The notes below the pieces were generated by a model that was given only the letters and a program-made list of their open reading frames with translations, made no database searches and had not been told where the DNA came from. Positions 39,686 through 63,199 of a stretch of DNA of 64,000 nucleotides are shown here, piece by piece. Source of the DNA: a virus; IMG/VR virus record IMGVR_UViG_3300030339_000006; one strand, given 5' to 3'. Numbering within the stretch: the stretch's first letter is position 1; the number at the start of each line of letters is the position of its first letter. A program made the translations under genes and the position numbers.

Positions 39686-41555
39686 TACTGGCGATCTGCT
39701 CGAGCTTGATGTAGCTTTCACCAAGGTTCTGGTAAGAACTACGCAGGTTCGTCACCATGTTACTCAACGCCTCAGGGTCCAGTGAGTCGGACAGTCTGTT
39801 TGAGTTAACACGGGCCAGGAAGAGAATGCGACCGAGGCGGTCTACTGCACTCCCGATTTCCGGCAGATATTCGTTAATGGTTTCGAACATGTTCGGATCG
39901 CTCAGGAGCTCAGCGATGATTGTCGCTTCCACGACGCTCTTATCGTTGGTCTTCGCCGCAGCGTTCAGACGGTCGGTCTGACCCATTTGGCGTTCCTGAC
40001 GGCTACCCGCCATGGTCGGTGCGGGTGGCAGTTTCTGACCATACTCGAAGAACGGAGTAGGACGAGAACCTTCAACGGCAGCAGCCTGCTTGGACATGTG
40101 CATCCCGATCATCTTGCGTTCTTCCGCAGACTTCATCAGGTTTTCCGTGTCGATCGGCTGGAGCATCATGTTCTCGACCAGCATGCGAGCGGCTTCCGGA
40201 CGTCCACCCACTGGGCGACCATCAATAGCGAACTCACCATTGTGGAAGGACATGGTGTGGTAATCCGGCAGATACGACGTAGTGCGATGCTCGTGACGGG
40301 TAACCGTGGCTGCGATAGACTTCTCGAACTGAGAGCCCAGCGAAGAGCGGTGGCCGACGTACGCACGACAGACGGCATTCAGGAACACGTCCTGGCCCCC
40401 ACGTTCGTTGCTCTGGCAGTGAACCAGACCGTGCATACCTTCGGTTACAATCACGCGACCGTTGCTGCCACCCTGGAAGGTACCGCGGTAGGTCGTCGAG
40501 TGAGCATCCATCAGTGGCATTCCGTCAATGTCAAACAGGAAGTATCCCGTACCGTCGAAGAACATCACCTTCTTATCCTCTGCACCGTCCAGGAGTAACG
40601 CCAATTCACCGGCAGGAACGCCAGAGAGGTTTGCTGTCACTTCATCGTACGGCACTTCCTGTTGGTGGATCACGACGTCTTTGTCGACCAGGCCAAACTG
40701 ACCCTCTACCGTACAGACCAGAACCTGGCGAGTGTCTACCGGTGCTCCGCATTGACGCAGTACCGCGATTGGGATTTCCCCACCGCCGACACCTTCCGCC
40801 ATGTACGCGTGGCCTTCTTCAGCCGCTTTCAGCTTGGTGTAATGGTTCGCACCGGCAGACTCAATTACCACACGGGTCGTCGAGTGTTCCCCGGCGATGT
40901 GGTAACCCTTTTGCACGATATCCTGAACGGCTTCGTGAGACAGTGGAGCTCCACCGGCTGCGAAATCAGGAGTGTCAGTCAGCACTTGGGCTTCTTTCAC
41001 CATCTGAACTTCGGGCAGTTTCTCAACCGTACGCAGGGCTTCGGCGAACTTCTCCAGGTTCAGCAGACGGCCGATCGAGTCGGAAATCTCTGGGTTCTGG
41101 GTCAGCGTGTCTGCCAGTTCGCCGCGAATCGCAGGATCGGACATCGCAATGATACCGTCCAGGCGGCCATCGCTGGCGTACATGAACTTACCGGTACGTG
41201 GTGGAACGACCAGATCTTTAAGGTCTGGGTTGGAAATAGCACCCTGTGGGGTACGGGCAGCGGCACCCATCCCGGCGTTCTGAGCGGCACGGACTTGTTC
41301 GATGGTCTTCTTGGTTAACGGGAAGAATGCCTTACGATCAGCCAAATAGATGGAATCGATAGGGAAAATTACCCCGCCGCGGGAGATCACCGGAATGTAG
41401 AACAGGTTCCCACCATTTCGCATGATGAAGACGCCTACCTCTACCCCGTCTGACTCGGACAGTTCAGAAGACATGTCTTTGAATGCCACGATGTACTTGC
41501 TCAAGCCGGGAGAAGCCGCGTTAAGCTTTTCCAGAGCCATCTGACTAAAATTCAT
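39678..41555 (-). CDS. Large putative head/core protein
   Basis: TAAAAT motif upstream; K-x-A motifs; first gene of the head operon. Confidence 0.55.
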   Translation of the reverse strand: MNFSQMALEKLNAASPGLSKYIVAFKDMSSELSESDGVEVGVFIMRNGGNLFYIPVISRGGVIFPIDSIYLADRKAFFPLTKKTIEQVRAAQNAGMGAAARTPQGAISNPDLKDLVVPPRTGKFMYASDGRLDGIIAMSDPAIRGELADTLTQNPEISDSIGRLLNLEKFAEALRTVEKLPEVQMVKEAQVLTDTPDFAAGGAPLSHEAVQDIVQKGYHIAGEHSTTRVVIESAGANHYTKLKAAEEGHAYMAEGVGGGEIPIAVLRQCGAPVDTRQVLVCTVEGQFGLVDKDVVIHQQEVPYDEVTANLSGVPAGELALLLDGAEDKKVMFFDGTGYFLFDIDGMPLMDAHSTTYRGTFQGGSNGRVIVTEGMHGLVHCQSNERGGQDVFLNAVCRAYVGHRSSLGSQFEKSIAATVTRHEHRTTSYLPDYHTMSFHNGEFAIDGRPVGGRPEAARMLVENMMLQPIDTENLMKSAEERKMIGMHMSKQAAAVEGSRPTPFFEYGQKLPPAPTMAGSRQERQMGQTDRLNAAAKTNDKSVVEATIIAELLSDPNMFETINEYLPEIGSAVDRLGRILFLARVNSNRLSDSLDPEALSNMVTNLRSSYQNLGESYIKLEQIASNV

Positions 41556-41604: not shown

Positions 41605-43014
41605 TTAGCTATTCATAGCGTCGAGGATTTCCTTGGTCAGGCTATCTTTGTTGGCTGCCGAGTGGTGCAGGTAGTCATCAATGCCTTGTCCACGAGAGAT
41701 CTTACCGAAGAGCTTGGGTTTGGTTGCGAGATATCTCATCACCCGTACTTTACGCTCTTCCTCAGGCAGGTCTGCGTGGGAACGGTAACGAATGCCACGA
41801 CCGATAACCTGGTTGATCTTCTCGTTGTTAAAGTGAGGCTCCATCCCTTGGAACGAACGGGTGCCCTTTAAATCCAAGCCTTCTGAGCCGGCTGACGACA
41901 GGAGGATCGCTTTGATCTTCCCTTCGTTGTAGTCACTGATAGCCTGCTTACGTTCCGAAGACGTGGTACTGCCGGTAAACATCGCAGCAGAAATCTTTTT
42001 CGCCACCAGTTGTCGGTGGGCCTCTTCCAGGCCGGAGCCCAGGTAGTTAGAGTAGATGATACCCTTGTGATTAGGATTATCCTTCATCATCGTCTCAAAG
42101 TCACTGACTATTCGATCAATCTTTGGCGCCGACGGTTTACGCGTGGTGTATTTAGCGTCGGTGTTACTGATCTGTCGAACGGCCTGAGAGAAGGCGTTCA
42201 GGTTCTGCTGCTCTTTCTTATCCACTGGAAGGTTCATACGGATCTTCAAGCGAAGAGGGAGGGGGATCGTGTCTTCTGCGTACTGGTAAGCCCGCAGCTG
42301 GTCCGGAGACATGTCAACGTGCACCATTTCGTCAGTACGGTCCGGGAAGTCCTGCTTCATTTCCTTCATGGCATCGAAGCGGTCCATGTACTCTTTACCC
42401 AGGCGACGCAGTTCCTTCTTGTTCTTCACAGACAGCTTATCACCGGGTTTCACCCCGAGAATACGCAGGAGTAGGCCTGGCTTGACTTTGTCATGCTGGA
42501 TGAAGGCCTGGTCGAACTTGTCTGGATCTTCCGGCATGACTGACTTGCCGGCCGTCGTGTTGATGACCTTGGCGATGTCAGAACGCTGGTTGTAGATCGG
42601 CGTACCGGTTAACAGCAGGCGTTGCTTGGCGGAACGAGCCAGATCGCGTACGGCGTCGGAGCGAAGCCCCGGGTTACGCACACGGTGGGCTTCATCGAGC
42701 ACCACCAAATGGTAGCCTTTGGCCTTGTAATCCTTCGCTTTTCTCTGAGCACCTTCGTAGGAATCGATGTCGATGTTCGAACGGATGTGCTTAGGGATGT
42801 TGTGCTTGTCCATTTCCTTCTGCATGTTGTCACGCAGCGGAGCCGGAACGATGAACAGGGCACGGGCCCCTGGATTCTTCTCAATGACACCGCGGGCGGA
42901 ATCGAGACTCTCGAGGGTCTTCCCTGACCCAAGAGAATGATAGGCCAGGACAGATTTGCCCGAGCCGATCTTGTCGGATATCCGCTGTTGGTGGTCCTTC
43001 AGCGTGTAATCCAT
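41605..43014 (-). CDS. SNF2-family helicase/ATPase
   Basis: HSLGSGKT, LDEAH, LLTGTP, GSEGLDL, QVIGRGIR. Confidence 0.9.
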   Translation of the reverse strand: MDYTLKDHQQRISDKIGSGKSVLAYHSLGSGKTLESLDSARGVIEKNPGARALFIVPAPLRDNMQKEMDKHNIPKHIRSNIDIDSYEGAQRKAKDYKAKGYHLVVLDEAHRVRNPGLRSDAVRDLARSAKQRLLLTGTPIYNQRSDIAKVINTTAGKSVMPEDPDKFDQAFIQHDKVKPGLLLRILGVKPGDKLSVKNKKELRRLGKEYMDRFDAMKEMKQDFPDRTDEMVHVDMSPDQLRAYQYAEDTIPLPLRLKIRMNLPVDKKEQQNLNAFSQAVRQISNTDAKYTTRKPSAPKIDRIVSDFETMMKDNPNHKGIIYSNYLGSGLEEAHRQLVAKKISAAMFTGSTTSSERKQAISDYNEGKIKAILLSSAGSEGLDLKGTRSFQGMEPHFNNEKINQVIGRGIRYRSHADLPEEERKVRVMRYLATKPKLFGKISRGQGIDDYLHHSAANKDSLTKEILDAMNS

Positions 43015-44834
43015 TAGTAACGACCTCCTTCGCCTTCACCGAACGCACCGCCGAGAATGTACGGGGCAATAGGGTCAGTGCTGCTTGATGGTGATTCCAT
43101 ACCTTCTGCTGCGGCCTCAGTCAGCGTCTTGCCGATCTGTTTGAACGCCAGGCGGGATAGCCAGTTGGTGTCTTTCAACTTCGCTGTCTTAATCCCCGGT
43201 ACCATTGGCTCTACTTCCAAGCCAGAACGAGACGTGTGAACCTCGTCGATACCGTGTTTGCTCAAATACGCCAGGTGGTTGCTGTCCAGGATTGTTCCCG
43301 GGGTCAACTCCAAGACTGGACGAGCCAGTTTCTGTCCGGTAGCACGCTCAATAGGCATGACCTGCGAGTCACGAGCCATTTCGTCGGCAATGTGGTTCAC
43401 GGTCACAACCTGGCCCGGAAGATACGCCGTAGTACCCGGATCCTTCACCTTCACGTATTTGACCAGATTCTTCGCGATCAGATCGAAGTGACGCGGGTCC
43501 AGTCCGCCGCCGTAGATTTCATACAGCTTGTTGGACATGTAGCGACGACCGTCACCGATGCCACGCAGGGCCACCAGCTCACGGGTGTTGATCGTACCGG
43601 TAGACAGAGCCTCACCGGTCTTCACTTTGTCGCCTTCCTTCACTGCCAGATCCTGGGAGTTCGGGATGAAGTACTCTTTGTCACCGACGTGCAGCGTGGT
43701 ATCCCCGAGAGTCGTGGTCTTGATCGTGTGAACAGAACCGTTACCCTCTGCGATGATCGCTTTGTCCTGGAACTTCTGTGGGTTGACCAAGAGGTTAGAC
43801 GTCAAGTCGTACGGGTTGATGGACTTACCGGATTTCGCGTTATGCTTAGTACCCAGAATCATCTGTGTCAACACTTCGGAGGCCGACTGAGCCGCCACGA
43901 CACCGACGTTCTCTCCGATATCCGGGATGTGACCGTTGGCATTCAGACCGTAACACTTCTTACACACGCCTTCTTTGGCCTGGCAGGTCAGCGTATTGCG
44001 GACTTTGATACTCTTCACGCCGTCGTGTTGCAACTGGCGGTAGTAAGCTTCGTCGATCAGGTGGTTTGTGCCGGCAGTGAAGTGGAAGATTACCTTCTTC
44101 TTATCCGTCGGATCCATCTTCTCGACCAGGCCATTCGTCGTGCCACAGTCGTCTTCCGTGATTACTTCGTGGTACAGGTTCGGAGTGATCGATTTGAACA
44201 TGTCGCCAGGCTTGGAGGTAGACAACTGAGCTCCCACGGTGTTACCGCGTCCCCAGTATGACATGGCCAAGTGTTCGGCGGGACTCAGACCTTCGGCGAA
44301 GGAGTGCATGATCGCCAGTGGGATCGGTGAGCCATCGATCTTCTTTGACTGAATCGGTGAGCTGGTAGCCTGTTGGAGCTGATCCGGGTTACCACGAGCA
44401 CCGGTCTGAGCCATCATAGCCGCCGTCGACTTGCGGGCCACCATGTAGTTCAGGTTCTGGTCGGTCAGCAAGCGTTGATACTTGGTTGACACGTCCAGCA
44501 GTTTTTCACGGCGTTCACGCTCGGAGAGACCCTTCTCGTCGTTCACGTGGTTAGTTGCCGCTTCGTATTCTTTGAGCATGGCATCACGTTCGTCTGAGTC
44601 GTTGTAGTAGTCAGAGAGTGGGGTGGAGTAGCCGTGATCGGTTGCTGTGTGGAAAAACAGGTGTGACAGATTCGAGATCGTGTCAGCTGCTTGATCTCCA
44701 CCGTGGGTAATGACGTTAGCAATCAAATCCTTAACGCCGTTCTTGTTCAGCACTGTGTGCGGGTCGAAGTGCTTCTGTGCTGCTTCCGGTAGCATGCTCT
44801 TAATCTTCAGAGCGCCGGGGGTAATGATTGTCAT
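43014..44834 (-). CDS. rpoC: RNA polymerase beta' subunit, C-terminal half
   Basis: MMAQTGARGN, SFAEGL, bridge helix, ITEDDCGT, TC...GVCKKCYG, trigger loop GENVGVVAAQSASEVLTQMILGTKH. Confidence 0.9.
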   Translation of the reverse strand: MTIITPGALKIKSMLPEAAQKHFDPHTVLNKNGVKDLIANVITHGGDQAADTISNLSHLFFHTATDHGYSTPLSDYYNDSDERDAMLKEYEAATNHVNDEKGLSERERREKLLDVSTKYQRLLTDQNLNYMVARKSTAAMMAQTGARGNPDQLQQATSSPIQSKKIDGSPIPLAIMHSFAEGLSPAEHLAMSYWGRGNTVGAQLSTSKPGDMFKSITPNLYHEVITEDDCGTTNGLVEKMDPTDKKKVIFHFTAGTNHLIDEAYYRQLQHDGVKSIKVRNTLTCQAKEGVCKKCYGLNANGHIPDIGENVGVVAAQSASEVLTQMILGTKHNAKSGKSINPYDLTSNLLVNPQKFQDKAIIAEGNGSVHTIKTTTLGDTTLHVGDKEYFIPNSQDLAVKEGDKVKTGEALSTGTINTRELVALRGIGDGRRYMSNKLYEIYGGGLDPRHFDLIAKNLVKYVKVKDPGTTAYLPGQVVTVNHIADEMARDSQVMPIERATGQKLARPVLELTPGTILDSNHLAYLSKHGIDEVHTSRSGLEVEPMVPGIKTAKLKDTNWLSRLAFKQIGKTLTEAAAEGMESPSSSTDPIAPYILGGAFGEGEGGRY

Positions 44835-44906
44835 GGAGACCTCCGTTTAGTTGATCAACTAGACCTATTTTACAGGGTATAAGTACTGTAGTGAATAGGA
44901 GAGTCT

Positions 44907-45170
44907 ATGTTCAAAATTCTTAAGAAATACTCTACCACAAGAGTAAGTTACAACGAACGGGCTACAGGTTGTGTAGACTACCTACCCGTTCAAGATCAGA
45001 TCTTCTTCGAAGATCACTACATAGGCGGAATACGCGTGTATCGAAGGATACTCTTCAGAGAAAGGATACCTGTGTACGCGTGGACCGCCAGTGCTGTTAT
45101 GGGCTTTACAGACTGGAAAACAGACTGCCCAGCAGACATTTGGAAACTTTGCACCGGGAAAGATCTATGA
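44907..45170 (+). CDS. Hypothetical protein
   Basis: RBS AGGAG after GGTATAA. Confidence 0.65.
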   Translation: MFKILKKYSTTRVSYNERATGCVDYLPVQDQIFFEDHYIGGIRVYRRILFRERIPVYAWTASAVMGFTDWKTDCPADIWKLCTGKDL

Positions 45171-45508
45171 AAACCAAAACTGTACTTGCTTTCGATACAC
45201 CCTTCATCACGTTCAAAGAGGATAACACCGTTTGGGTTTCAGTTGAATCCCTCTCGAACTTCCTCGGCCTGGGTTACGCAGAACAGGTGTACAACCTGTC
45301 CGGCGATACATCCATGCGGGAACTGGGGTTGAAGACCACCACTACCCCTGTCACGAAAGTCATCAGTGATGAGGGCCGGCAGTATCTTTGCATTCGACTC
45401 GAGGATGTCTCATTGTTTGCGGCCACGGCCACACTCGATGATCTCGGGAAGATTGATAACCAAAGACACTGCCGGGATGACCTGCCGGGTCTCCTGGCAG
45501 TATCCTGA
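45167..45508 (+). CDS. P22 antirepressor N-terminal/Bro-N-like protein
   Basis: F...EDNTVWVSVESLSNFLGLGYAEQ...GRQYLCIRLEDVSLF. Confidence 0.55.
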   Translation: MKTKTVLAFDTPFITFKEDNTVWVSVESLSNFLGLGYAEQVYNLSGDTSMRELGLKTTTTPVTKVISDEGRQYLCIRLEDVSLFAATATLDDLGKIDNQRHCRDDLPGLLAVS

Positions 45509-45529
45509 GGACCCTTACGGGTCCTTTTT
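45509..45529 (+). terminator. Rho-independent terminator
   Basis: GGACCC-TTAC-GGGTCC-TTTTT. Confidence 0.8.
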
Positions 45530-45566
45530 AGCTGCTGTGACATCGAAAGTCAGGGTCCTGTTCCCA

Positions 45567-45781
45567 AAATGTTCCAAAGAAAACCCAGATAGGACAAGGG
45601 CTTAGACGATTCTGTGACATTGTTACATCGGAACGTCTCCAACCCACCCTTATTAGAGACATCTTACCCCTATACATACATTACTATGGATCTTTAAATA
45701 GGTATATATAGGATACTACCTACTCTATGGGGATAAAGGGGGTGTGTGTTTAGGGGTGTTGTTCCTGTAACGGTGTCACAG
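45567..45781. repeat. Non-coding palindromic element, copy 2 (168 bp core 45613-45780)
   Basis: Direct repeat of copy 1 at offset 32,860; arms CTGTGACATTGTTACA / TGTAACGGTGTCACAG. Confidence 0.9.
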
Positions 45782-46400
45782 CCCGGTCACGATAGTACCC
45801 AATCATGTTACCTGCTGCGTTTCCTACCTTCGAGGCAAGATACGCGGTACCCAAAGATCCCCCGATGGCGAACAATGGGTTTGTCCCATTTGTCATCATA
45901 CGGGCAGCCAGAGGAACGACCGACGCGATACCCAGGGCAGAACCCATGTTTGAGTAACGTGACTGACGATCACTCATGATGTCCACGTGGGTCAGTGCTT
46001 CCGGGATCATATCCACAGAGTCAGCTGCAGCAATCGCTCCGTCTACTACTCGACGTCCGATTGCTCCCCCTACTATAGACCCGCCGATAGCGCCTGCAAC
46101 GCCCGCTGCGACCTTAGCACGCAGTGACCCTGGCATTGCTGCGGCTGCAAGGTAAGAACCCAGCAGAGAGCCTCCTATGCCACCTCCTGACTGGATTACG
46201 TCTTTGGCCACGTACCCCAGGTCATCGATCGGGCGATCCATCAGGGCCACCTTCTCGAGCGGTTTCTGACGGAGCAGAGCACGAATCTTCGCTTTGGCGT
46301 ATGACAGCGCCATTTTATGAGGACGAGGGTCAGTACTCGCCTTCAGCAGCACCTTGATTTCCGGGCTGCGGTATACTTCAGTTACGTTAGAATCCTCCAC
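45750..46400 (-). CDS. Gly-zipper membrane-type virion protein (putative)
   Basis: LEKVA followed by several GxxxG segments; start uncertain; the 3' end runs into the repeat element. Confidence 0.55.
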   Translation of the reverse strand: MEDSNVTEVYRSPEIKVLLKASTDPRPHKMALSYAKAKIRALLRQKPLEKVALMDRPIDDLGYVAKDVIQSGGGIGGSLLGSYLAAAAMPGSLRAKVAAGVAGAIGGSIVGGAIGRRVVDGAIAAADSVDMIPEALTHVDIMSDRQSRYSNMGSALGIASVVPLAARMMTNGTNPLFAIGGSLGTAYLASKVGNAAGNMIGYYRDRAVTPLQEQHP

Positions 46401-46545
46401 GTCTGGCTCCTAATTTCTTTGCACGACGGTACATACCGTTGATCGACATACGGGTGCCACGTAGGAGTCCGCGAAGAGCGATGAAGCTGCCCAGCCCGGC
46501 CCCGATCTTGATCCCCGTCTCCAGATAAGACTTTTGTTCATTCAT
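46387..46545 (-). CDS. 52 aa basic peptide with Gly-rich hydrophobic segment
   Basis: RBS GGAGG, TAAAAT upstream; MNEQKSYLETGIKIGAGLGSFIALRGLLRG... Confidence 0.6.
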   Translation of the reverse strand: MNEQKSYLETGIKIGAGLGSFIALRGLLRGTRMSINGMYRRAKKLGARRGGF

Positions 46546-46623
46546 AGTGTTCCTCCATTCAGCTCATATTTTAGGGTATAAGCAAGGTGTAGTAGAAACC
46601 ATTGTACCCCAAAGGAGGTGCCT

Positions 46624-46836
46624 ATGAAATATCGCATTACAGAAAGGATTGCCGGGTTCAACTACGCGGCAGGACTTCTGGCGAGCTCACGTGCCCTAAG
46701 CGATGATGACCTTCGTCTCGCGGTAAATACCATGATCGAAAACGCTGAGATAGCCACAGAGAGCTACCAGCGGGGCGTCGAAGATGCCCTTATGCATTCC
46801 CATCCGTATCTTTCTAGAAGACTCGGCCACTACTGA
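46624..46836 (+). CDS. Hypothetical protein
   Basis: RBS AGGAGGT. Confidence 0.65.
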   Translation: MKYRITERIAGFNYAAGLLASSRALSDDDLRLAVNTMIENAEIATESYQRGVEDALMHSHPYLSRRLGHY

Positions 46837-46894
46837 TCCCGCGAGGGACATTCTGAATGGTCTTCATTCACAATTTTCCTTAAAGGAGATTTCC

Positions 46895-47248
46895 ATGGAA
46901 ATCTTAAAAACCCCCATCACCTTCAACTTCTGTGGCCTCCTGTTGAAGTTCGTTATTGATCCATCTGGCCGTCGTCTGGTTGATTCCGCCAAGCTTTGGT
47001 CCGACCTGGAACTCTGGCAGCGTCCGGCTCCGGATTGCACTGAGTATCTGTATGAAGAAGATCGCGAGGGGATACCATCCTGGTCGGTCTCCCGGTTCAG
47101 TAACCTAGAGGATCTGAAGAAACGCCACGAGCAACTCTCCACGATCGCTCTGATGAAGGACAACAAAGGTTTCATCCAACTGGGCTTCCTGCTCGAACAT
47201 TACCCACAACTCCTAGCAAAGCTAGATAAGGACTTACAATGTCAATAG
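46895..47248 (+). CDS. Degenerate Bro-N-like protein
   Basis: RBS AAGGAG; TFNFCG...IDPSGRRLVDSAKLWSDLEL. Confidence 0.5.
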   Translation: MEILKTPITFNFCGLLLKFVIDPSGRRLVDSAKLWSDLELWQRPAPDCTEYLYEEDREGIPSWSVSRFSNLEDLKKRHEQLSTIALMKDNKGFIQLGFLLEHYPQLLAKLDKDLQCQ

Positions 47249-47862
47249 AAACATTCAACTTCCACGGTGAATCAATCCGCTTCAACTTAGACACCATGCA
47301 GATCAGCGTTTCGGATATTCTCTCCGTCATCGCCAATGACGTAAGCCAATTTGCCCTTGAGTCTAAATTCTCCTATTGGGTAGGCCTGGATAAAGTCATG
47401 GATGTCATCTCCGAAGGTTCGGATGGTTGCGGTGAATGTGGGGTCTGCACGATCTGGCTGTTGGAATTCGTCCCGACGTTGGTCAAGTGGTTGACCTGGC
47501 AGCATAGCGCCCTCGACCCAATCACGATCAACGAAGACGAATACAGCAAAGGCTTCAAAGAGGTCTACTGGGCACAGAAAGACGCCAAACACACTACCGC
47601 GTATCTGCTCTCAGGTGTTTTCACAGATTTGTACTCCCCGTGGGACGATCGCTGTGAAGTGAAGGTGGGTATGGGATACATTCCGTTAGAGGGTGAATTC
47701 CAGTACCGCGTCGTTCACGTGGTCCGTGATGTTGATATCGTAGAGGATGTCCCGGGTGGCTTCCCGCTCCGCTCTACTCGCTCGGTTACCCTACGTCTGG
47801 GTGTCGAAACGATCATCAAAAGTGCGGATCTCGGCAGCTTGCTCCACACGCTGTCCCGTTAA
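47239..47862 (+). CDS. Bro-N/KilA-N-like protein
   Basis: MSIETFNFHGESIRF...ISVSDILSVI. Confidence 0.5.
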   Translation: MSIETFNFHGESIRFNLDTMQISVSDILSVIANDVSQFALESKFSYWVGLDKVMDVISEGSDGCGECGVCTIWLLEFVPTLVKWLTWQHSALDPITINEDEYSKGFKEVYWAQKDAKHTTAYLLSGVFTDLYSPWDDRCEVKVGMGYIPLEGEFQYRVVHVVRDVDIVEDVPGGFPLRSTRSVTLRLGVETIIKSADLGSLLHTLSR

Positions 47863-47886
47863 AATCCGGGGTGGAGGTACCACCCT

Positions 47887-48222
47887 ATGATCGAAATTGT
47901 GTACTTGAACGGAACTCCGGTAAATACCATTAAGACTGACGCGATCTACGTCGATGTCGTGAAGTTCTGGAAGGACCTAAAGATCCGCGTGGATCTGGCA
48001 CCCCTTCCTCCTTTCACGGAAATCCTCACGAGCGAATCAGAGAAGAGCTTCGCACTGGGCCAGTACGTGACCCTTGAAGACTTCGTCCAAGCCGTTTCTA
48101 ACATGAACCCGATTGCCATCGATGCAGCTATTCAGCATGCGATTTCCGTCGGTCTCACGGAAGCGGTCACGACTTACTGGGCATCACTGCCGGAGTTCAC
48201 ACCTATCTACAAGCCCCGCTAA
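47887..48222 (+). CDS. Degenerate Bro-N-like protein
   Basis: YLNGTPV...IYVDVVKFWKDLKI. Confidence 0.45.
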   Translation: MIEIVYLNGTPVNTIKTDAIYVDVVKFWKDLKIRVDLAPLPPFTEILTSESEKSFALGQYVTLEDFVQAVSNMNPIAIDAAIQHAISVGLTEAVTTYWASLPEFTPIYKPR

Positions 48223-48244
48223 GGGGCTTTTTTCGGAAACTGCT

Positions 48245-48877
48245 ATGGATTTTTTCGGTTGTCCAATTGATATCACGGTAGAACGCGGGCAGGTACATAT
48301 CGCCAGCACATCCCTGACTGAAAACCTCATCCTCCCTAAACGATTGGACCGAATGATCCTCGAGACCGACAAGATCCCGTTGGATTTACTCCTTCCAATC
48401 CTCAACCAATTCTCTGATACGAACAAGCAGGGCATCTTCCGCCGCCATCTGATCGAGGCCATCGTGATTGACAGTACGTGGATGACGAAGAAACTCCAGA
48501 AGGTGTATCCTCGCGTCGTTCCCGTCGTCCCGGGGCTTAACGTAACCTGCTACAACGAGGAAGGCCTCTGGATTGACGCGATGGATCTGGAGTATGACTT
48601 AAATCCCAAAGCTCGCCCCGCCCGTATCCCCCGATTATCCATGCGTCCATTCGACATGATGTATCGCCCTCGCCTGGCTCATCTGGAGCAGATGGAACGC
48701 GTCCGCTACTTTATCCCACTGCGTAGCCTCGACGATTACCTGGCCGCCAGCCGCAATCTGGCCAACGACAAGAACGTCCGGGCGTGGAAAGGACGCATCG
48801 AATCTGCCCTCCTGGATTACTGGGAGAACCTGGCGGACCTATCCTCTATCGGCTTACCGGAGAAATACCGTGCTTAA
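48245..48877 (+). CDS. Protein with two degenerate Bro-N/antirepressor-like segments
   Basis: FFGCPI...GQVHIASTSLTENL; EGLWIDAMDLEYDL. Confidence 0.45.
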   Translation: MDFFGCPIDITVERGQVHIASTSLTENLILPKRLDRMILETDKIPLDLLLPILNQFSDTNKQGIFRRHLIEAIVIDSTWMTKKLQKVYPRVVPVVPGLNVTCYNEEGLWIDAMDLEYDLNPKARPARIPRLSMRPFDMMYRPRLAHLEQMERVRYFIPLRSLDDYLAASRNLANDKNVRAWKGRIESALLDYWENLADLSSIGLPEKYRA

Positions 48878-49151
48878 AAACGTTGTCATTATCTTCGGGG
48901 TATCCCTCCCAATCATGGAGGATGGCCACCTGGTGTACGTCGACCCTGGTGAGCTTCTGAAGAAGCTGTCGATAGACCGCGAGCTGATCCCGTGCAATCG
49001 TCGAGTTGGCTGGTGGGATGGCTTCTGCCACATCTCTAAGGCCACGATGACTTCGGAGTACTTAGTGTATATGCTCAGGACTTTAAGGGGTTCACAGGAA
49101 GAGATCGAGAAGTACAACATCTACGCTGATGAGATTGAGCGACGGGTGTAA
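48870..49151 (+). CDS. Degenerate Bro-N-like protein
   Basis: IFGVSLPIMEDGHLVYVDPGELLKKLSI. Confidence 0.45.
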   Translation: MLKNVVIIFGVSLPIMEDGHLVYVDPGELLKKLSIDRELIPCNRRVGWWDGFCHISKATMTSEYLVYMLRTLRGSQEEIEKYNIYADEIERRV

Positions 49152-49155
49152 AAGA

Positions 49156-49182
49156 AAAGGGCCCCGTTAAGGGCCCTTTTTT
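49156..49182. terminator. Bidirectional terminator
   Basis: AAAAGGGCCC-CGTTAA-GGGCCCTTTTTT between convergent genes. Confidence 0.8.
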
Positions 49183-49267
49183 AGGCAGGAAAATGAAATT
49201 TCAACAGCATTCACAACATTCAATAACATAAGGAGGACTTCCACTATAGCTAAGTCCTCCTGGACTG

Positions 49268-52200
49268 TCAACCCGTAATTCGAATCGGAGTGTCACTTTG
49301 TACGTGACCTGCTTCGAGAGCCGCCAGTGCTTCAGCTTCTGTCTTGAATTCCACGACTTTCTTATCCATGTTCGGCTTAGTCAGGTGAACTGAACCGAGG
49401 ATCGCTTCGTGGCCCGGTGCGAACATCGGGTTGCCGTAACCTTTACGAGCGTCGTGCAGGTTGCTCGAAGGCATCAACTTCTCCTTCGCTTCCCGTACGG
49501 CTTCCGGAGTCATCGGCACGAACATCGACATGGCGTCACCGTCGTAGTCGGCTGCGAACGCCGGTAGGTGGAGGATGTTCACCCCGATCGTCTTACCGTC
49601 CGTCGGCACTGCCTTCATCGCCATGATGTTGGTACGCATCAGGGTCGGTGCACGGTTCAGCATGACCGGAACGGTATCCACGATGTGGTTAAAGCTCGCC
49701 GTCGCTGCGTCGTTACGTCCTTCGTAGGCGTTCTTCGCTTCCGCCAGGTCATACCCTTTCTGGCTCAGGTCACGAATGATGTGCATCTTGTACATCGTCC
49801 AGAGCTGATCAGCGGGGATACGGGCCTCGTTGAAACCAATATCTGGCGCCGCGTAGATCGTACCACGACCGGAGAAGTCCTGTTTCTTCTTCAGGATCTT
49901 ATCCTGGAAGTAACCCGTCTTCGGTCCACCGGTACCTTCCAGCTGACGCATCAGGCCTTTGGTCCCCTTCTGCTTCGCTTGGAAGTCAATCGGGTCACCG
50001 CCGTCCATGATTGCTTTCGCCCCGTTGTACAGGTCACGACGCAGATCGACCATCCCTTCCATGTCTGGAGAGATCATGTCCATCCCGATTTCGTCATCCA
50101 GACGCTTCAAGCGGCCATTTACCAGCATGTGGTGTTTGTACAGCTCGTTGACGTCAGCGTAGCCCAGACGGTTACCCGAAATGGTATACGGACGCATGAC
50201 CGGAGGAATTACCGGCATGTGGTGCAGCACGAGTGCCTTCGATGGATCCGTAAAGCCCTGCTTGGCCAGACCGGCCAGGTACTTCATCTTCTTCACGATG
50301 GTGTCACGCTTGGTGGCAGACTTCTCGTCCATCACTTTGCCACGCAGGTGGGCCAGCTCGTCGTCGACGTGAATGTCTTTCAACATCGCTTCGATCGCGT
50401 GTCCGCCGACCAGTGCTTCCCCACCCTCTTCTGCCGCTGCTTTCTCCAGCGTGTTGGAAACGGTCAGCTGTTTCACCAGAGCATCGTCCTTGTGGGTATC
50501 GACCAGGTCGAACAGGCCTTTACCGCGACGAATCACCCCATACTTCCCGGAGATCAGGTTCGTCATGTGCTCTTTGCTCAGACCCAGCAGGGCACGAGCA
50601 GGATCTTCCATGACCGGGTTAACGATCGGTTCCATCAGCTTGTAGTGAGACCAGTTGTTACCTTCTGGACCACCGGTCACGTCCATATCGAACAGGCCGC
50701 CCTTCACTGGAGAGACGTTACGAGCCAAGATCATGTCCGGCTTGTGAATCTCACCGCTCGAGTTACCTAGCACTTCACGGTCGGTCATTGGGCCGGCCAC
50801 GAGGTTACCGTTACGCTCAGAGACGTTGATGCCTGAACCACGCAGGTAATCGAAGAACTTACGCGTGGCGAAAGTCGTCTTCGGCTGCGGCAGTGGCAGG
50901 CCACGCATGAACTTGTCCCAGTAATCGTGGGTGTCAGAGTGATCACCACCTTCAGACTTCACGGTACCGATCTCTTTCAAGTTAGCACGAGCGTTGGAAC
51001 CCAACAGGCCCAGGAACTCCATGTAACCCACGGCCTTAGCACCATCGTCACCACCCTTAGTAGGCTGGGCGTTGTTGTCGTAGCCACCAACTGAACGGGC
51101 CGAGTAGTTCGCATCGGTCGTCTTGTTCAGCTTCAGGAAGTACTGTGGCCCCGTCAGGACATTCGTACCGTACACGTGACCGGTTTTCGGATCGATAACG
51201 GTGTCGGTGTCAGACAGGCCGTGCTCTTTTAGCTTAGCCATCAAGTTCTTGACGGTGTTGCCTTCTTCGTAGACTTTGGTCTTGTACGGCTGCCCGGTCT
51301 TCTGAGCAATCTTACCGGCCGCAGCTTCGAAGATCTGACCCAGGTTGATACGGGACGTTACTGACGCTGGGTTCAGAATCAGGTCGAACGGCTTACCGGT
51401 AGTACCGCTGGTAGGCATTTCGTCGTCTTCGAGAACCGCTGAGACCACGCCTTTGTTCCCGTGGAAGCCAGTGACTTTATCGCCGATCTCCAGGTTACGT
51501 TCACAGCGAACCATGATGCGAATCTTCTTCCCGTCAACGCTGGTGTCGGTCACGGTACCTTTTTCTTTGTGGTCCCAGACTTCTGCAGCAGAACGGTACG
51601 GGTTCACCAGCGTCTTATGCAGACGGCCGAGCACCATGTCCGTTTCGGTCAGTTGACGCTGCTCGAGAACGGCGAAGACCGGGTCACCGTATTCCAGCAC
51701 GGCACCCTGCTTAGCGAAGCCACGGGAGTCCAGCTTGGAGAGCTGCTCTGCAGTGAACTTGCCGGCGAAGGCTGCTTTGTACTTGTTGACGTCCGCGATG
51801 GTGTCTTTACCCATCTCGTATTCCACTTTGTACGCGTGGTTGGACTGCAGCTTCTCCGTCGCAGAGCGAGACACGACGATACCATCTTCGTGGTTGAACC
51901 CTTTGAATGGCATGTACGCCGTTTCCAGGTTCTTACCGATCGCCAACTGGCCGTCTTTGGTGTAGTTGTTGTCCGTCAGTACCTGACCGGCTTCAACCTG
52001 AGCACCGACCGGGTGCAGGTTAGGTTCGTCATCGTGGAAGCCTTTCATGTTGAACGGCAGGTTCTGCACGAAGTCGACGGTGTGTTCTTTCCCGTCGTGA
52101 GCCTTGATCACCATCTGAGACGGTGTGGACTTCACTACGGTACCCGTCACCGGCGCCACGGTAGACACGATCTTACCGATCGCAGAAACGAAGGTCTCGC

Positions 52201-53848
52201 CGTTATCCGCAACGGTCTGCACCAGCGGAGTCTCACGGTTCGTCAGGGACAACGCCTGTGGGATCGCCTTGCCTGCCATGGTCAGACGGCCCGGGTGGTT
52301 GGTGTTCAGGAACGGCACGAGGTTAGTCGTGATCGTGTACATGTCCGTACCGGATGGAATCCAGTATTGAACCTGGCCGCGAGGCACGTTCTTGAACTCG
52401 CCGTGAACCTGAGCCTGGACGATTGGCTTACCGTTGTCCTTCTCACCCGGGAACCCGATGGTGTGCGTCATGATTTCGTTGGCAGACAGATAAACCTTCT
52501 TGCCTTGATTATCGACGGCACGAGCGTACATCCCACCTTCTTTGTCACGGTGAGCCGTGATGGTGAAACGCTGGTCCAGACCGGCAGTTGACGATTCTGG
52601 TGTACGGGACGGGTCAATGATACCGAGCTGAGAGGGGTGCACGTTACGGCTCTCCGTCGTGGCCTGGCGCTCAGAGGACATCCCGCCGTCACCGGCAGCA
52701 ATTAGGGTCACCTTACCGACGTTCTCGATAGACTCGACAGGGTTGGTCTCATCCGGCGTAGAGCTCAGCTGAGAACCGATGATGAAGTCCGAGTAAATCT
52801 TGTTGAACGGCTTGGCCGGGATCACTTCACGCAGGCTCGGGGCCGCGTCATTGATTCGGCTCAGGTTGTACTTGATGCGGTCAAAGGACTTCCCAACGGT
52901 CTGGTGCAGCTTGTTCGCTTCGAAACGACGACCGATGAAGTCCGGCAGGTTCTGAACACGCTTGAACTGCAGGGAGTCACGGTTATCTTCCGGACGCTTC
53001 TTCGAGTACACTTCGACGATGTTCTTCATCGCACGCAGCAGTGTCTCTGGCTCGATCCCACCGAAGGACTTCCCAAGGGTTGTCGCGGTAGTCTCTTTGT
53101 CCAGAGTCATTTCGGCCAGACGGCTCTTCAGCGCCACGCCCATTTCCTCAGTGGAAACACTGCGGGACTGTTCTTTGCGGTCAACCAAACGCTTGTACAG
53201 CTGGCCGAGGATCAGGTCTTCCTTACCCTTGGTGATCTTGCGGTTAGCCATCCACACGTCAGACGGAACGAAACGCATCACGTCGGCGTCGGACAGGCCA
53301 AAGCCCTTGGTCATCAACGGAGCGATCGGAATGTGCAAGTTCTTGCCGTTGATCTTGGAGAAGTAAATCTCCATGGTCTTCGAATCCAGGCCGAGAGAGA
53401 ACGTCGCACCCTTACCGGTGTTGATGTTCGTTTCCAGCTCGCCGTTGTTGGTCTTACGGGTGTAAACCCCGGGACGCAGCTGCATTAAGTTGGCGACGGA
53501 ATAGTTGTTCCCTTTGTACAGTAGGGTATGCTTGTTGGTGACGTGGAAGGTGTCAGCCAGGGCGAAGTTCTGCACGCGGTCAACCAGTTTCCCGGTCGCA
53601 CGGTCGTGCAGCATCAACGTACCGCGGATTGGGTACGTCAGAGAACGCGACTTCAAGATCGCGTCCTTCTCATCTGCCGTGGTGTAGTTCTTCTTGTCGA
53701 CATGCATGTCCTCTACCGACAGGGTGTACTTACCCGTCTCGATAGGGAACTGTTGCTTGATACCCTGGAGCATCGCGTCATCAGTGGCCGCGTTGATTGC
53801 GACCGGTGACGAGAAGATAGGCATCAATTCACTTGCTGTCTTAGGCAT
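49268..53848 (-). CDS. rpoBC: RNA polymerase beta subunit fused to N-terminal half of beta' (contains the catalytic DYDGD)
   Basis: beta motifs: TPE, GFNHEDG, GDKVTGFHGNKGVV, NPASVTSRINLGQ. beta' motifs: KKQDFSGRG, NRAPTL, AADYDGD. Confidence 0.92.
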   Translation of the reverse strand: MPKTASELMPIFSSPVAINAATDDAMLQGIKQQFPIETGKYTLSVEDMHVDKKNYTTADEKDAILKSRSLTYPIRGTLMLHDRATGKLVDRVQNFALADTFHVTNKHTLLYKGNNYSVANLMQLRPGVYTRKTNNGELETNINTGKGATFSLGLDSKTMEIYFSKINGKNLHIPIAPLMTKGFGLSDADVMRFVPSDVWMANRKITKGKEDLILGQLYKRLVDRKEQSRSVSTEEMGVALKSRLAEMTLDKETTATTLGKSFGGIEPETLLRAMKNIVEVYSKKRPEDNRDSLQFKRVQNLPDFIGRRFEANKLHQTVGKSFDRIKYNLSRINDAAPSLREVIPAKPFNKIYSDFIIGSQLSSTPDETNPVESIENVGKVTLIAAGDGGMSSERQATTESRNVHPSQLGIIDPSRTPESSTAGLDQRFTITAHRDKEGGMYARAVDNQGKKVYLSANEIMTHTIGFPGEKDNGKPIVQAQVHGEFKNVPRGQVQYWIPSGTDMYTITTNLVPFLNTNHPGRLTMAGKAIPQALSLTNRETPLVQTVADNGETFVSAIGKIVSTVAPVTGTVVKSTPSQMVIKAHDGKEHTVDFVQNLPFNMKGFHDDEPNLHPVGAQVEAGQVLTDNNYTKDGQLAIGKNLETAYMPFKGFNHEDGIVVSRSATEKLQSNHAYKVEYEMGKDTIADVNKYKAAFAGKFTAEQLSKLDSRGFAKQGAVLEYGDPVFAVLEQRQLTETDMVLGRLHKTLVNPYRSAAEVWDHKEKGTVTDTSVDGKKIRIMVRCERNLEIGDKVTGFHGNKGVVSAVLEDDEMPTSGTTGKPFDLILNPASVTSRINLGQIFEAAAGKIAQKTGQPYKTKVYEEGNTVKNLMAKLKEHGLSDTDTVIDPKTGHVYGTNVLTGPQYFLKLNKTTDANYSARSVGGYDNNAQPTKGGDDGAKAVGYMEFLGLLGSNARANLKEIGTVKSEGGDHSDTHDYWDKFMRGLPLPQPKTTFATRKFFDYLRGSGINVSERNGNLVAGPMTDREVLGNSSGEIHKPDMILARNVSPVKGGLFDMDVTGGPEGNNWSHYKLMEPIVNPVMEDPARALLGLSKEHMTNLISGKYGVIRRGKGLFDLVDTHKDDALVKQLTVSNTLEKAAAEEGGEALVGGHAIEAMLKDIHVDDELAHLRGKVMDEKSATKRDTIVKKMKYLAGLAKQGFTDPSKALVLHHMPVIPPVMRPYTISGNRLGYADVNELYKHHMLVNGRLKRLDDEIGMDMISPDMEGMVDLRRDLYNGAKAIMDGGDPIDFQAKQKGTKGLMRQLEGTGGPKTGYFQDKILKKKQDFSGRGTIYAAPDIGFNEARIPADQLWTMYKMHIIRDLSQKGYDLAEAKNAYEGRNDAATASFNHIVDTVPVMLNRAPTLMRTNIMAMKAVPTDGKTIGVNILHLPAFAADYDGDAMSMFVPMTPEAVREAKEKLMPSSNLHDARKGYGNPMFAPGHEAILGSVHLTKPNMDKKVVEFKTEAEALAALEAGHVQSDTPIRITG

Positions 53849-54116
53849 TGCGTTTCTCCATGTAGATTACAACGGCAGTATAGATCCCGGTGGCAGACGA
53901 GATGGAGTCTTTACGCTCCACCACAATGACACTGCCCTGCAGGCTTCGAGTCAGGAGAGACTCCATCTGCAGCGTGTCATCGTCTTCACCCCCGATAGTG
54001 AAGTACCCGATACGGTACTGCCACTCGTCCATGTTAATCCCTAACTGATCAACGGCCGGGGTAACCCCGGGCATTGCGTTCCCTTCATTACTTGGTTCCA
54101 GCGGATTCTTGGCCAT
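53841..54116 (-). CDS. Small acidic hypothetical protein between portal and RNAP
   Basis: RBS AGGAG; overlaps both neighbours. Confidence 0.65.
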   Translation of the reverse strand: MAKNPLEPSNEGNAMPGVTPAVDQLGINMDEWQYRIGYFTIGGEDDDTLQMESLLTRSLQGSVIVVERKDSISSATGIYTAVVIYMEKRNA

Positions 54117-55800
54117 CTTGTTCTCCTTGTTGTGCCGGTGGCAGGTTTTCGATGATGTTCATAACGCTCTGATACATCGTCTGGTCTTTCGCCTGTAGAG
54201 CCAACAGAGCTTGCTGCTGAGCTTCTGGAGGAGTCTGCAGAATCTTCGCAGCTTCGTCATAGGCTTCTTTACGGTTGTCAGCGAATCCTGAGCTGTCTTT
54301 ATCAGACGCCAGGCCTTTGGATTTCGCGAAGATTGCTTTCTCGACGAGGTCTTTCGTTTCGACCTGGCTTTCAGCAGAGGAGACGGTATCGTTCATCATC
54401 TTCTCGAGTTCTTCATCATAATCCATTCCGAACGCTTCTAACAGGGTAGATGCAGACAAAATGTTAGATTTCCACATGTCCATCATGGACGCTTTCAGTG
54501 CTTCGTTATCCGTAAGTTTAAACGGCACGAGCTTCACTTCGGCAATCTCCAGAGACAGATATGACGCGATCTTCTCCATGATCCATTCGATCATATCCTT
54601 GAGCTGGCCCACGTAGTTGTTCATCGTGTTTTCCAGCAGACGCAGACCGATGGTTGAAGACGTCCAGTTAGTCGTACCAGACAGCAGTTCACGGGATACC
54701 CCCATGGACATCAGCTGTTGCTCTTCAGCGTACTGCAACTCTTGGGAGACCAACAGGGAACGTCCCTGGCCACCGATTTGCTGCGAACCGATCGGGATCG
54801 GAGAGATCAGCACGTGGTTCGGGTCCGACTTCATCTGACGGATTGTCCCCTTCATGTGCTTCGCGAAACCACGCAGTGACATCTGGGCCACCGGGTCGGC
54901 GTTCGCTGAGTTCTGCTGCGGGAAGATAACACGCAACGGAACCATGTGTTCTGCCGCCACTGCTTCGTTAGCCTTGCGGAGCATTGCCTGGTAGAACACC
55001 AGACCGTAGTGAGAGATCAACGGTGGGATGCCCAGCCCATCAATCATGTTACCCATCGAAATGGACTTCATGTGGTAGATGTTGGTGTCATCGAACAGGT
55101 AATCTTTACCAAAGCGTACGGCTTCAACCATAGACCACGGCACGGTAGACAGGAACAGTGGGTCGCCCATCATGATCTTCTTCTTCACGTCGCCAGGAAT
55201 CTGATAGTAGAACTCGGATTCTCCGGTCACCGGGTTGTGGTTCAGAGAGACGTTCTCTGGTTTCCACTTGATCAGGTTGATGCGAGACACGTCACGGGAC
55301 TTAGTGTCGACCAATTTGTAGTTCACGATGTTGTGACAGTTCGGGCATTCCCCGACGAATTGCCATTTCTTGAACGCTGCGAAGCCAGAACGCATGGCAG
55401 TCTTCACTTCGTAGGACGAGCGGCAGTTCGGGCAGTGCACGTGGCGGTCAATCGGGAAGTAGATCGACGTGTAAACGTTACCGAGCGTGTAGTAATCGAA
55501 ACCGGCGTCACAGAGCTTCTCTTTGAACTTGATGCTCTTGAAGATCTGCTTGTACGTCTCGATGGTTTTCTCGTTCTTGGAGTCCGTCAGGAACTCAGTG
55601 ATCGGGTAAGAGGAAAGCTTACGGATCACTTCGGTGGTAGTCGGCGCCTGGGTAGTGATGTAGCGGGACCACTTGATAATGTCATGAAAGCTACGCGGGA
55701 TGAACTGGTTCGCTTGCGTAAAGAAAGGACTCGGCAGTTGGCCGACCTCGTAGCTGTCATACATTCCACTCGGGGTGGGGTTAAGTCCGAACATTGACAT
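54088..55800 (-). CDS. Portal protein (putative) with Zn-ribbon insertion
   Basis: DYYTLGNVY, IYHMK...GLGIPPL, MGVSRELL.G portal-like pattern; CPNC...CPNC insert. Confidence 0.7.
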   Translation of the reverse strand: MSMFGLNPTPSGMYDSYEVGQLPSPFFTQANQFIPRSFHDIIKWSRYITTQAPTTTEVIRKLSSYPITEFLTDSKNEKTIETYKQIFKSIKFKEKLCDAGFDYYTLGNVYTSIYFPIDRHVHCPNCRSSYEVKTAMRSGFAAFKKWQFVGECPNCHNIVNYKLVDTKSRDVSRINLIKWKPENVSLNHNPVTGESEFYYQIPGDVKKKIMMGDPLFLSTVPWSMVEAVRFGKDYLFDDTNIYHMKSISMGNMIDGLGIPPLISHYGLVFYQAMLRKANEAVAAEHMVPLRVIFPQQNSANADPVAQMSLRGFAKHMKGTIRQMKSDPNHVLISPIPIGSQQIGGQGRSLLVSQELQYAEEQQLMSMGVSRELLSGTTNWTSSTIGLRLLENTMNNYVGQLKDMIEWIMEKIASYLSLEIAEVKLVPFKLTDNEALKASMMDMWKSNILSASTLLEAFGMDYDEELEKMMNDTVSSAESQVETKDLVEKAIFAKSKGLASDKDSSGFADNRKEAYDEAAKILQTPPEAQQQALLALQAKDQTMYQSVMNIIENLPPAQQGEQDGQESAGTK

Positions 55801-62144: not shown

Positions 62145-62417
62145 ATGAAGATCGAGATGAAAGACAACCTGTTAACGCTGACACCAGAAGGCCGGTGGGA
62201 GCGGAAGACTATTGAGGATAAAACTAAAAAGGCGATGGCGGCTTTTGGCGTTTCTTCTCGTGTTGGACGGATTTTCGCAGCAGTGACGATCGCTACCGAG
62301 CTCGGTCATGACATCTCGGTAGACAATCGCCAAGTCACGGTGCAGGATCAGTCGTTCTCGATATACCCCAGAGGACTGGACGGCATGTCCATCCCTGAAG
62401 TACTCATCAACCCGTAA
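62145..62417 (+). CDS. Hypothetical protein
   Basis: RBS GGAG; 70 bp convergent overlap with the sigma gene. Confidence 0.55.
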   Translation: MKIEMKDNLLTLTPEGRWERKTIEDKTKKAMAAFGVSSRVGRIFAAVTIATELGHDISVDNRQVTVQDQSFSIYPRGLDGMSIPEVLINP

Positions 62418-63199
62418 CCCGCCTCCATAACTTCTCCAATACTCTCAAGACTCTTCGCCAACGTCTTCTTGACGAACGCTTGATTCACTTTAGGATCGTT
62501 GATGTGCTTCACGATGTCGGCCGGCTTCATCTCCGTGCCGTCGATCAGACCGTATGTCAGCTTAACGATTGTGCTATCAGGATAAGGCAGTGCGTTAATT
62601 GCACCCATGAGACTTTTGTCTTCGAGCTCGTTGACCAGTTCATCGATCGGGTTAACCGTTGGCATCTCTGCCTCCTTCATGTTATCCAGATAGAAGGTGA
62701 TGTACTGGGTCTTACTGAGCTCTTTCAAATCCCGCACGGATGCATTCGGGAATTCTTCACGCAGCTCACACAGCGTTGGGACAACATCGAGACCTTCAAT
62801 GTGCTTCTTCAGCTTGGTCGCCAGTTGTTGCTTCTGAGCGGGAAGAGCCACCAAACGCCACTTGGACATCTCTTTGAGTTGGCGTTGCATGACCCACCAG
62901 CCGGCGTACGTCAATAGACGAACTCCCGAGGTCGGATCAAATTTGTCGAGACCTGCAAGCAAGCCTTCATTTCCGGCTGCGATCAGGTCCTCGAATTGCT
63001 CCAGGTTACCGCGGGAATACTTCTTGGCCCGTTTGAACACGTAGCGGAGGTTTGAGCAGATCAACTTATCGCGAGCGGCCTTCTTTACATTAGGGTTAGT
63101 GGCGGGATCGAAATAAGTCGCCAGCAGTACCGTTTCGTCCTCACGGGATAGAATCGGGTAGCGGTCGCAGATCTCTTCGTAGTATTTTGTCAGGCCCAT
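62348..63199 (-). CDS. Sigma70-family RNA polymerase sigma factor
   Basis: Region 1.2 YPILSREDE; region 2 LICSNLRYV...DLIAAGNEGL...KFDP..G.RLLTYA.WW. Confidence 0.9.
   Translation of the reverse strand: MGLTKYYEEICDRYPILSREDETVLLATYFDPATNPNVKKAARDKLICSNLRYVFKRAKKYSRGNLEQFEDLIAAGNEGLLAGLDKFDPTSGVRLLTYAGWWVMQRQLKEMSKWRLVALPAQKQQLATKLKKHIEGLDVVPTLCELREEFPNASVRDLKELSKTQYITFYLDNMKEAEMPTVNPIDELVNELEDKSLMGAINALPYPDSTIVKLTYGLIDGTEMKPADIVKHINDPKVNQAFVKKTLAKSLESIGEVMEAGYGLMSTSGMDMPSSPLGYIEND

Follow-up and report, generated by a model that had tools for sequence, protein, structure and literature searches.

The window analysed here is a stretch of 64,000 nucleotides from the IMG/VR virus record IMGVR_UViG_3300030339_000006. 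It is the minus strand of G000:C1:91480-155479, and its source is a complete 176,021-bp phage record with a G+C content of 53%. The window encodes a bacterial-type multisubunit RNA polymerase (RNAP) in two genes that lie 4433 nt apart. One codes for a protein of 1526 amino acids (aa), P0001, in which the beta subunit is joined to the N-terminal part of beta' (beta'N); the other codes for a 606-aa protein, P0002, that carries the remainder of beta' (beta'C). The gene order at the locus is portal, 91-aa protein, fused gene, variable spacer, beta'C, SNF2 ATPase and 625-aa protein (Table 1).

Composition of the two polymerase chains

P0001 contains the Pfam domains Rpb2_3, Rpb2_6 (E 4e-54), Rpb1_1 and Rpb1_2. 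In a MAFFT alignment of 72 rows (71 family members and Salmonella beta with the N-terminal half of beta'), residues 1 to about 1014 align to beta 21-1342 and residues from about 1016 to 1526 align to beta' 20-551. The passage from one subunit to the other has no linker, beta 1342 being followed directly by beta' 20-67. BLASTP against Salmonella rpoB and rpoC (locus L010) gave the same picture: P0001 263-966 matches beta 418-1296, 1030-1059 matches beta' 34-63 and 1138-1525 matches beta' 168-553. Since beta is joined head-to-tail to beta' ~20-551, both active-site barrels lie on one polypeptide. A preliminary description of this stretch had placed both barrel halves in a single 1526-aa open reading frame (ORF); the ORF is exact, and Pfam, BLASTP and MAFFT all bear the assignment out. 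The best PHROG families for the two polymerase chains are two of unknown function, one beta-like and one beta'-like.

The catalytic motifs of the enzyme are intact. GNKG occupies P0001 residues 797-800, and HGNKG is nearly invariant across the 71 homologues; AADYDGD occupies residues 1432-1438 (nt 49535-49555, minus strand), and the motif PGHEAILGSVHLT is found in the polymerase alongside these two. D495, D497, G498 and D499 of the family alignment A1 are invariant, as are all catalytic motifs. The earlier description had set ADYDGD against the NADFDGD of other polymerases. Its Tyr for Phe is trivial, as both residues occur in the family, and the real departure is Ala for Asn. The Asn of NADFDGD contacts the ribose hydroxyls of the incoming NTP. 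It is replaced by Ala (or Gly) throughout the subfamily of Arash-like phages and is mostly kept in more distant fused relatives.

Several parts of the bacterial enzyme are missing from the fused chain. Sequence insertion SI1 (beta 213-362) is largely gone and SI2 (beta 938-1049) is gone altogether. On the beta' side, the alignment skips 32 residues (beta' 68-99), including all four cysteines of the zinc-binding domain (ZBD), and resumes over beta' 100-551. The site holds 20 residues in P0001 versus 52 in Salmonella beta', which include C70, C72, C85 and C88. Exactly 20 cysteine-free residues separate GGLFD from WSHY in 71 of 71 family members, so that the deletion of the Cys4 domain, already proposed for this protein, is a trait of the whole family. 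More distant representatives have the same 20 cysteine-free residues, and the domain is missing from every cluster in which beta is fused to beta'N. The flap-tip segment, lid, clamp helices and rudder region of P0001 all align with the bacterial enzyme. An AlphaFold model of residues 940-1526 (pLDDT 81) has only bacterial beta' and cyanobacterial gamma chains as its top fold matches. The rifampicin pocket (P0001 residues 355-428, window ~52570-52790, minus strand) differs from that of Escherichia coli at Q513S, F514T, H526N, R529K and S531T, and for this reason the phage enzyme is probably insensitive to the drug.

P0002 contains Rpb1_4 and Rpb1_5 and carries the bridge helix and trigger loop, as had been claimed for a 606-aa ORF 4.4 kb from the first; SI3 is missing. 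BLASTP matches its residues 140-331 to beta' 724-936 and residues 349-482 to beta' 1144-1285. A second zinc site is kept (C230, C284, C291 and C294, equivalent to E. coli C814, C888, C895 and C898). The core enzyme as a whole is without beta SI1 and SI2, beta' SI3 and the beta' ZBD.

P0001 ends at a point equivalent to residue ~559 in the gamma chain of cyanobacteria, which has 624 aa; residue 4 of P0002 aligns with beta' ~570, and about residue 15 of P0002 aligns with residue 1 of cyanobacterial rpoC2. By these placements the phage beta' is cut in the same linker as the cyanobacterial subunit, some tens of residues earlier. The preliminary description had put the split near the rpoC1/rpoC2 boundary and had called it different from that of phiKZ. 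The difference from phiKZ is correct for beta only: the beta' cut of the phiKZ/AR9 enzymes coincides with the cyanobacterial one (Sokolova et al. review, PMC7598289). The beta' cut is therefore recurrent, and only the beta side differs from phiKZ.

Table 1. Features of the polymerase locus and associated genes (window positions unless stated otherwise)
Feature	Position	Strand	Basis
Fused beta + beta'N gene, P0001, 1526 aa	49268..53848	-	ORF list, Pfam, BLASTP, MAFFT
Beta module, P0001 residues 1-1014: Rpb2_3, Rpb2_6, GNKG lysines, flap with flap-tip segment	50807..53848	-	
Beta'N module, P0001 residues 1015-1526: zipper region, clamp helices (~1223-1283), catalytic barrel	49271..50806	-	
Site of the missing zinc-binding domain, P0001 residues 1050-1069 (GGLFD...NNWSHY)	50642..50701	-	
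Beta'C gene, P0002, 606 aa, beta' ~570 to end	43014..44834	-	ORF list, Pfam, BLASTP
Spacer between the polymerase genes, 4.4 kb; ~8 small genes mostly on the opposite strand, two GGTATAAG motifs	44835..49267		
Sigma-70-like site TTCACT-17-TAAAAT, just upstream of the beta'C start	44867..44895	-	Consensus match only
Near-consensus sigma-70 site TTGACA-17-TATAGT (11/12), at the fused-gene end and pointing into the spacer	49243-49271	-	
91-aa protein P0003; stop overlaps the fused-gene start	53841..54116	-	
Portal protein gene, immediately upstream	54088..55800	-	
SNF2-family ATPase, 469 aa; start overlaps the beta'C stop by one base	41605..43014	-	
Conserved 625-aa protein after the polymerase genes	39678-41555	-	
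Sigma-70-family factor, 283 aa, region 2, homologue of Arash gp196	62348..63199	-	
Second sigma, 234 aa, region 3 and weak region 2, homologue of Arash gp10	G000 162024-162728, outside the window		

Distribution of the layout and comparison with known polymerases

The same two-chain layout is present in phage Arash, which grows on Salmonella (Gp206 and Gp216, 80% and 74% identity; OQ632216; PMC10585845), and in Vibrio phages D69, D148 and D181 (55% and 53% identity). Arash and the Vibrio phages also share the order of portal, small protein and fused gene with the phage studied here, and in Arash the resemblance extends to a pair of sigma genes and to an SNF2 gene that follows beta'C. The Arash paper labels the two proteins simply beta and beta', and the fusion, the cut and the loss of the zinc domain go unmentioned (PMC10585845). 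No description of the architecture was found in the literature, only part of which is searchable, and the two-chain fused architecture appears to be undescribed in print.

The layout was first taken as a peculiarity of this phage. That is not the case, for it is widespread. A search with a word index across the junction returned about 75 clusters of fused proteins of 1450-1616 aa with 39-83% identity. When the beta'N part was used in an exhaustive search without profiles, fusions of beta and beta'N made up 77 of the 150 nearest 50%-identity clusters, and complete beta-beta' proteins in a single chain of about 2000-2600 aa made up another 58, so that beta is fused to beta'N in 135 of the 150. 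The cut and uncut forms are split by a single branch (support 99, one change) in a FastTree tree of the beta'N region comprising 125 rows with Salmonella as the outgroup. The layout defines a large uncultured clade, of which Arash represents the polymerase family in culture.

These data also bear on whether the fusion and split could be an assembly or sequencing artefact, or the remains of decaying pseudogenes. The identical fused protein is recorded on 12 contigs, the beta-beta' junction and the C-terminal end are common to 71 homologues, and the Arash homologue Gp206 has 100% peptide coverage (PMC10585845). All catalytic motifs are invariant as well. The fusion is genuine, and an artefact or pseudogene is refuted by these data.

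Only one of 185,579 species genomes has a relative, and it lies on a 4.3-kb contig of a metagenome-assembled genome; the family is on this count essentially confined to phage contigs. Salmonella beta and beta' are only 28-30% identical to the phage chains, and the E-values of P0001 (~1e-44 to 1e-38) are similar for the beta' of E. coli, Thermus, Bacillus and cyanobacteria. By these sequence comparisons the polymerase is not a recent capture from the host, since its identity to the host chains is low and its E-values are alike across bacterial phyla.

In cyanobacteria and plastids, too, beta' is divided (rpoC1, or gamma, and rpoC2) downstream of its catalytic barrel, in the linker region where the phage beta' is cut. 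Cyanobacteria still have beta as a chain of its own, the ZBD, alpha and omega, and the phage is without these. As in the phage, the rpoBC genes of Helicobacter and Wolbachia run from the end of beta into the start of beta' in a single frame. Those proteins of about 2900 aa contain a complete beta' with its zinc domain and work with alpha and omega, whereas the phage fusion has lost beta' residues 1-19 and the zinc domain, and its beta' is cut again.

The phiKZ/AR9 polymerases are likewise phage-encoded two-barrel enzymes without alpha or omega, with a beta' cut after the catalytic barrel; a virion-packaged form exists, and their polymerase genes are accompanied by one for an SNF2-type helicase, as here. 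Their beta is cut into two or three pieces and never fused to beta', whereas it is continuous and fused in the present phage; they come as two paralogous sets (virion and non-virion) instead of one; and they have no sigma homologue (PMC7824862, PMC7598289, PMC13282480), whereas this phage has two sigma-70-family genes. They are also far more divergent from bacterial enzymes, and no chain described as phiKZ or AR9 is among the best PDB matches of the phage chains.

The polymerases of the mReC group (Weinheimer & Aylward 2020, PMC7481178), from uncultured tailed phages, are still recognised by cellular beta and beta' models and are deep-branching and not host-derived, as here. Their listed lengths differ, with pairs of beta of about 1000-1400 aa (a few up to 1563) and beta' of about 900-1390 aa. 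That study describes separate beta and beta' and mentions neither the fusion/cut layout nor sigma (PMC7481178), and none of the contigs used here is named in its supplement.

Variants of the layout were seen among the relatives. The sister group of the two-chain polymerases consists of the complete single-chain beta-beta' proteins, examples of which are L014:1025-7270 and P0129-P0272; one such gene has ParA and KTSC genes as neighbours on a contig of 10.9 kb. In another sister group (L011:10001-19490, JGI Ga0138308_100057; L012), proteins of about 1112 aa end at P0001 ~1118, the site of a large insertion in Thermus beta', and are followed by a 633-aa ORF, a 385-aa beta' middle piece and beta'C. 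The 633-aa ORF, unassigned to a family and with a faint DnaJ-like stretch, is in the same frame as the 385-aa piece, with one stop codon between them. A homing-endonuclease gene interrupts the fused gene in D181 (L002:8001-13515) and D148, where it is annotated as several hypothetical proteins; the fused gene of D69 is uninterrupted. P0138, a more distant relative, has a LAGLIDADG intein in its beta part. Two candidates were rejected: P0157 (1019 aa), considered as a beta' without its N-terminal tip, belongs to a gene cut by the contig end, and the gut contig MT836236 encodes a conventional beta in two ORFs and a 1444-aa beta'.

Sigma factors, missing subunits and the role of the enzyme

The complete 176-kb genome, searched in six frames with Pfam models, has one Rpb2_6 locus, one Rpb1_2 locus and no second beta/beta' set; the phage has one polymerase set. 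No match to alpha was above the cut-off genome-wide (RNA_pol_A_bac none, RNA_pol_L one weak match, E 0.04), nor was any to omega. The models used (PF01000, PF01193 and PF01192) worked as positive controls in 14 of 14 genomes. The preliminary description had recognised no alpha or omega gene in this stretch, and the observation now extends to the complete genome.

There are two Sigma70_r2 matches genome-wide, corresponding to two sigma-70-family genes of 283 and 234 aa (Table 1). Sigma genes are also present in Arash and Vibrio phage D181 and adjoin the polymerase in metagenomic relatives. Complex prediction set residues 20-65 of the 234-aa sigma against the clamp helices (P0001 1228-1272), with a docking score of 0.85 compared with 0.04 for the best control; no less than 51% of contacts recur between runs, and the partner has a pLDDT of 71 or more. 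The mark that this pair passes is reached by 58 of 80 solved complexes and by 2 of 110 mismatched pairs. Because sigma and beta' are a textbook pair, the pass may reflect likeness to solved holoenzymes rather than prove binding. The streamlined two-chain enzyme first proposed therefore stands in part: the core does consist of two chains stripped of insertions and ZBD, but sigma, its likely third component, had been omitted, and the use of host alpha or omega is possible.

A promoter-like motif, tGGTATAAGTAaGGTGTAA (GGTATAAG), resembles an extended -10 element and has 30 copies in the genome versus 2.35 +/- 1.2 expected. All but one of them (29/30) belong to the strand that carries the non-structural genes. 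The copies usually stand 30-60 nt upstream of a start codon, and for 18 of them this distance is 15-80 nt. Six copies are in the window versus 0.82 expected (15827, 44876, 46575, 55860, 56483 and 60478, plus strand). In Arash, TGGTATAAG shows the same strand bias (18 versus 0). Sigma region 3 reads the TG of extended -10 promoters, and the 234-aa sigma, which is of the virion type, has this region. Host sigma-70 prefers T at -7; the G found there in the motif suggests a non-host specificity.

In the reading we favour, with a probability of about 70%, these genes specify a self-contained, sigma-dependent, probably virion-carried bacterial-type polymerase with redrawn chain boundaries. The covalent link between beta and beta' would probably replace the alpha-dimer assembly platform, and promoter recognition would probably be left to phage sigma-70-family factors bound to the flap tip and the conserved clamp helices. 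If Arash is a guide, the capsid would contain both chains together with the 234-aa sigma and the SNF2 ATPase, and all of these would be injected. This would make early transcription independent of the host polymerase, and the likely targets of the phage enzyme would be TGGTATAAG (extended -10-like) promoters before non-structural genes. Sigma partnership, independence of alpha and omega, injection with an early role, and the promoter assignment are what we infer; presence in virions has been demonstrated by others in the relative Arash. To a fuller statement we would give even odds: that Arash-like capsids carry a complete self-assembling holoenzyme (beta-beta'N, beta'C and sigma) without alpha, omega or the zinc domain, which would make it the first sigma-dependent virion multisubunit RNAP, and that a sister clade has true single-chain beta-beta' proteins of about 2000 aa.

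The evidence on packaging comes from the Arash proteome. Gp206 is the most-detected virion protein (3516 spectra, 100% coverage), and Gp216 (1210), the sigma Gp10 (467), the helicase Gp217 (1148), which is the homologue of the 469-aa SNF2 ATPase, and Gp218 (1149) were also detected; gp196, the second sigma, and gp205, the homologue of the 91-aa protein, are not in the virion list (PMC10585845). The portal gene lies directly upstream of the polymerase genes, which places them in the virion-protein module, and in all relatives examined they lie between portal and other virion-protein genes. The enzyme could instead be a non-virion polymerase, made in mid or late infection for middle or late transcription only and detected in Arash particles through carry-over, with the host polymerase, possibly redirected by injected sigma, reading the early genes. 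The Arash authors themselves raised the possibility that abundant late proteins contaminate the particle preparation (PMC10585845), and near-consensus and partial sigma-70-type sites do occur in the region. Carry-over does not sit well, however, with both chains being among the most-detected virion proteins, at 89-100% coverage in CsCl-type proteomics, nor with the detection of the cognate sigma while gp196 and gp205 are missing (PMC10585845). With the genes inside the virion module in every relative and a single polymerase set, which leaves no separate early phage enzyme, we regard this alternative as unlikely.

A second alternative is a hybrid enzyme, in which host alpha2 (and omega) serve as the assembly base for the two phage chains and the fusion is a quirk of gene layout, as in Helicobacter. 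The core is clearly bacterial-type (28-33% identity, all fold matches bacterial), and bacterial beta-beta' fusions, those of Helicobacter and Wolbachia rpoBC, still use alpha. Yet the enzyme is no closer to the host polymerase than to those of distant phyla, which makes co-adapted alpha contacts unlikely, and the same family occurs in phages of very different environments and hosts (Vibrio, Salmonella). An enzyme packed in virions would need host alpha to be packaged too, and the phiKZ/AR9 polymerases work without alpha (PMC7598289). We consider a hybrid quite improbable. Four findings make both alternatives less likely: there is one polymerase set, its genes lie in the virion module, Arash virions selectively contain one of the two sigmas, and the enzyme is equally distant from all bacterial phyla.

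Several observations weigh against the self-contained, virion-carried polymerase that we prefer. The virion evidence is from Arash, whose fused chain is 80% identical. A very divergent phage alpha or omega may escape Pfam models, and host alpha or omega could still be recruited. The phage sigma genes are compatible both with serving the phage core and with redirecting the host core. The case for TGGTATAAG/tGGTATAAGTAaGGTGTAA as a candidate promoter read by the injected holoenzyme is circumstantial. CTAAAAT, tried as a late promoter, precedes several genes of the structural strand, yet its count is not enriched (15 found versus 11.2 expected), and it was rejected. The adjacency of an SNF2 gene to beta'C is limited to the Salmonella-phage lineage. 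Finally, the rows of the FastTree tree were picked by similarity to the query and include one bacterial outgroup.

According to reviews up to 2026, a jumbo phage that encodes its own multisubunit polymerase lacks a sigma homologue, and a phage that encodes sigma lacks a polymerase (PMC7824862, PMC7598289, PMC13282480). The present family combines the two, with a polymerase that resembles the bacterial enzyme much more than the phiKZ polymerase does. The holoenzyme reading, if true, would break the accepted rule that phages encode their own polymerase or a sigma, not both. If the core assembles without alpha and omega, covalent linkage of beta and beta' is able to replace the assembly platform, structural and synthetic biology would gain a minimal one- or two-chain sigma-dependent polymerase, and it would become possible to test what the beta' ZBD is needed for. 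Arash on Salmonella, together with the Vibrio phages, offers a culturable model for a very large uncultured clade.

Neighbouring genes

The gene order around the polymerase, minus the SNF2 gene, recurs in distant metagenomic relatives. The spacer between the two polymerase genes shrinks to about 0.65 kb in Vibrio phages D181, D148 and D69 and reaches 8.5 kb in other relatives. Within it, the TTCACT-17-TAAAAT site stands back-to-back with the GGTATAAG copy at 44876-44883 on the other strand.

The 91-aa protein P0003 is conserved and syntenic in all relatives examined. It was considered as an omega subunit or assembly factor and rejected, being without a Pfam or PHROG match. Its AlphaFold2 model (pLDDT 76) has a beta-alpha-beta-beta topology, whereas omega is helical, and no fold match was meaningful (best Z 5.2 against 48,161 chains; best BFVD E 0.014). 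The absence of its Arash homologue from the published virion list also speaks against such a part. The 625-aa protein gave no lead from Pfam, PHROG, fold or Atlas searches. It is syntenic after beta'C across the clade at 28-29% identity and is a homologue of the abundant Arash virion protein gp218.

Two further genes lie near that of the 283-aa sigma. A DEAD/Helicase_C_2 helicase gene adjoins it (60515-62101, plus strand), and a second SNF2-family ATPase of 626 aa is encoded nearby (58604-60484, plus strand); distant relatives likewise have this SNF2 gene close to their polymerase genes.

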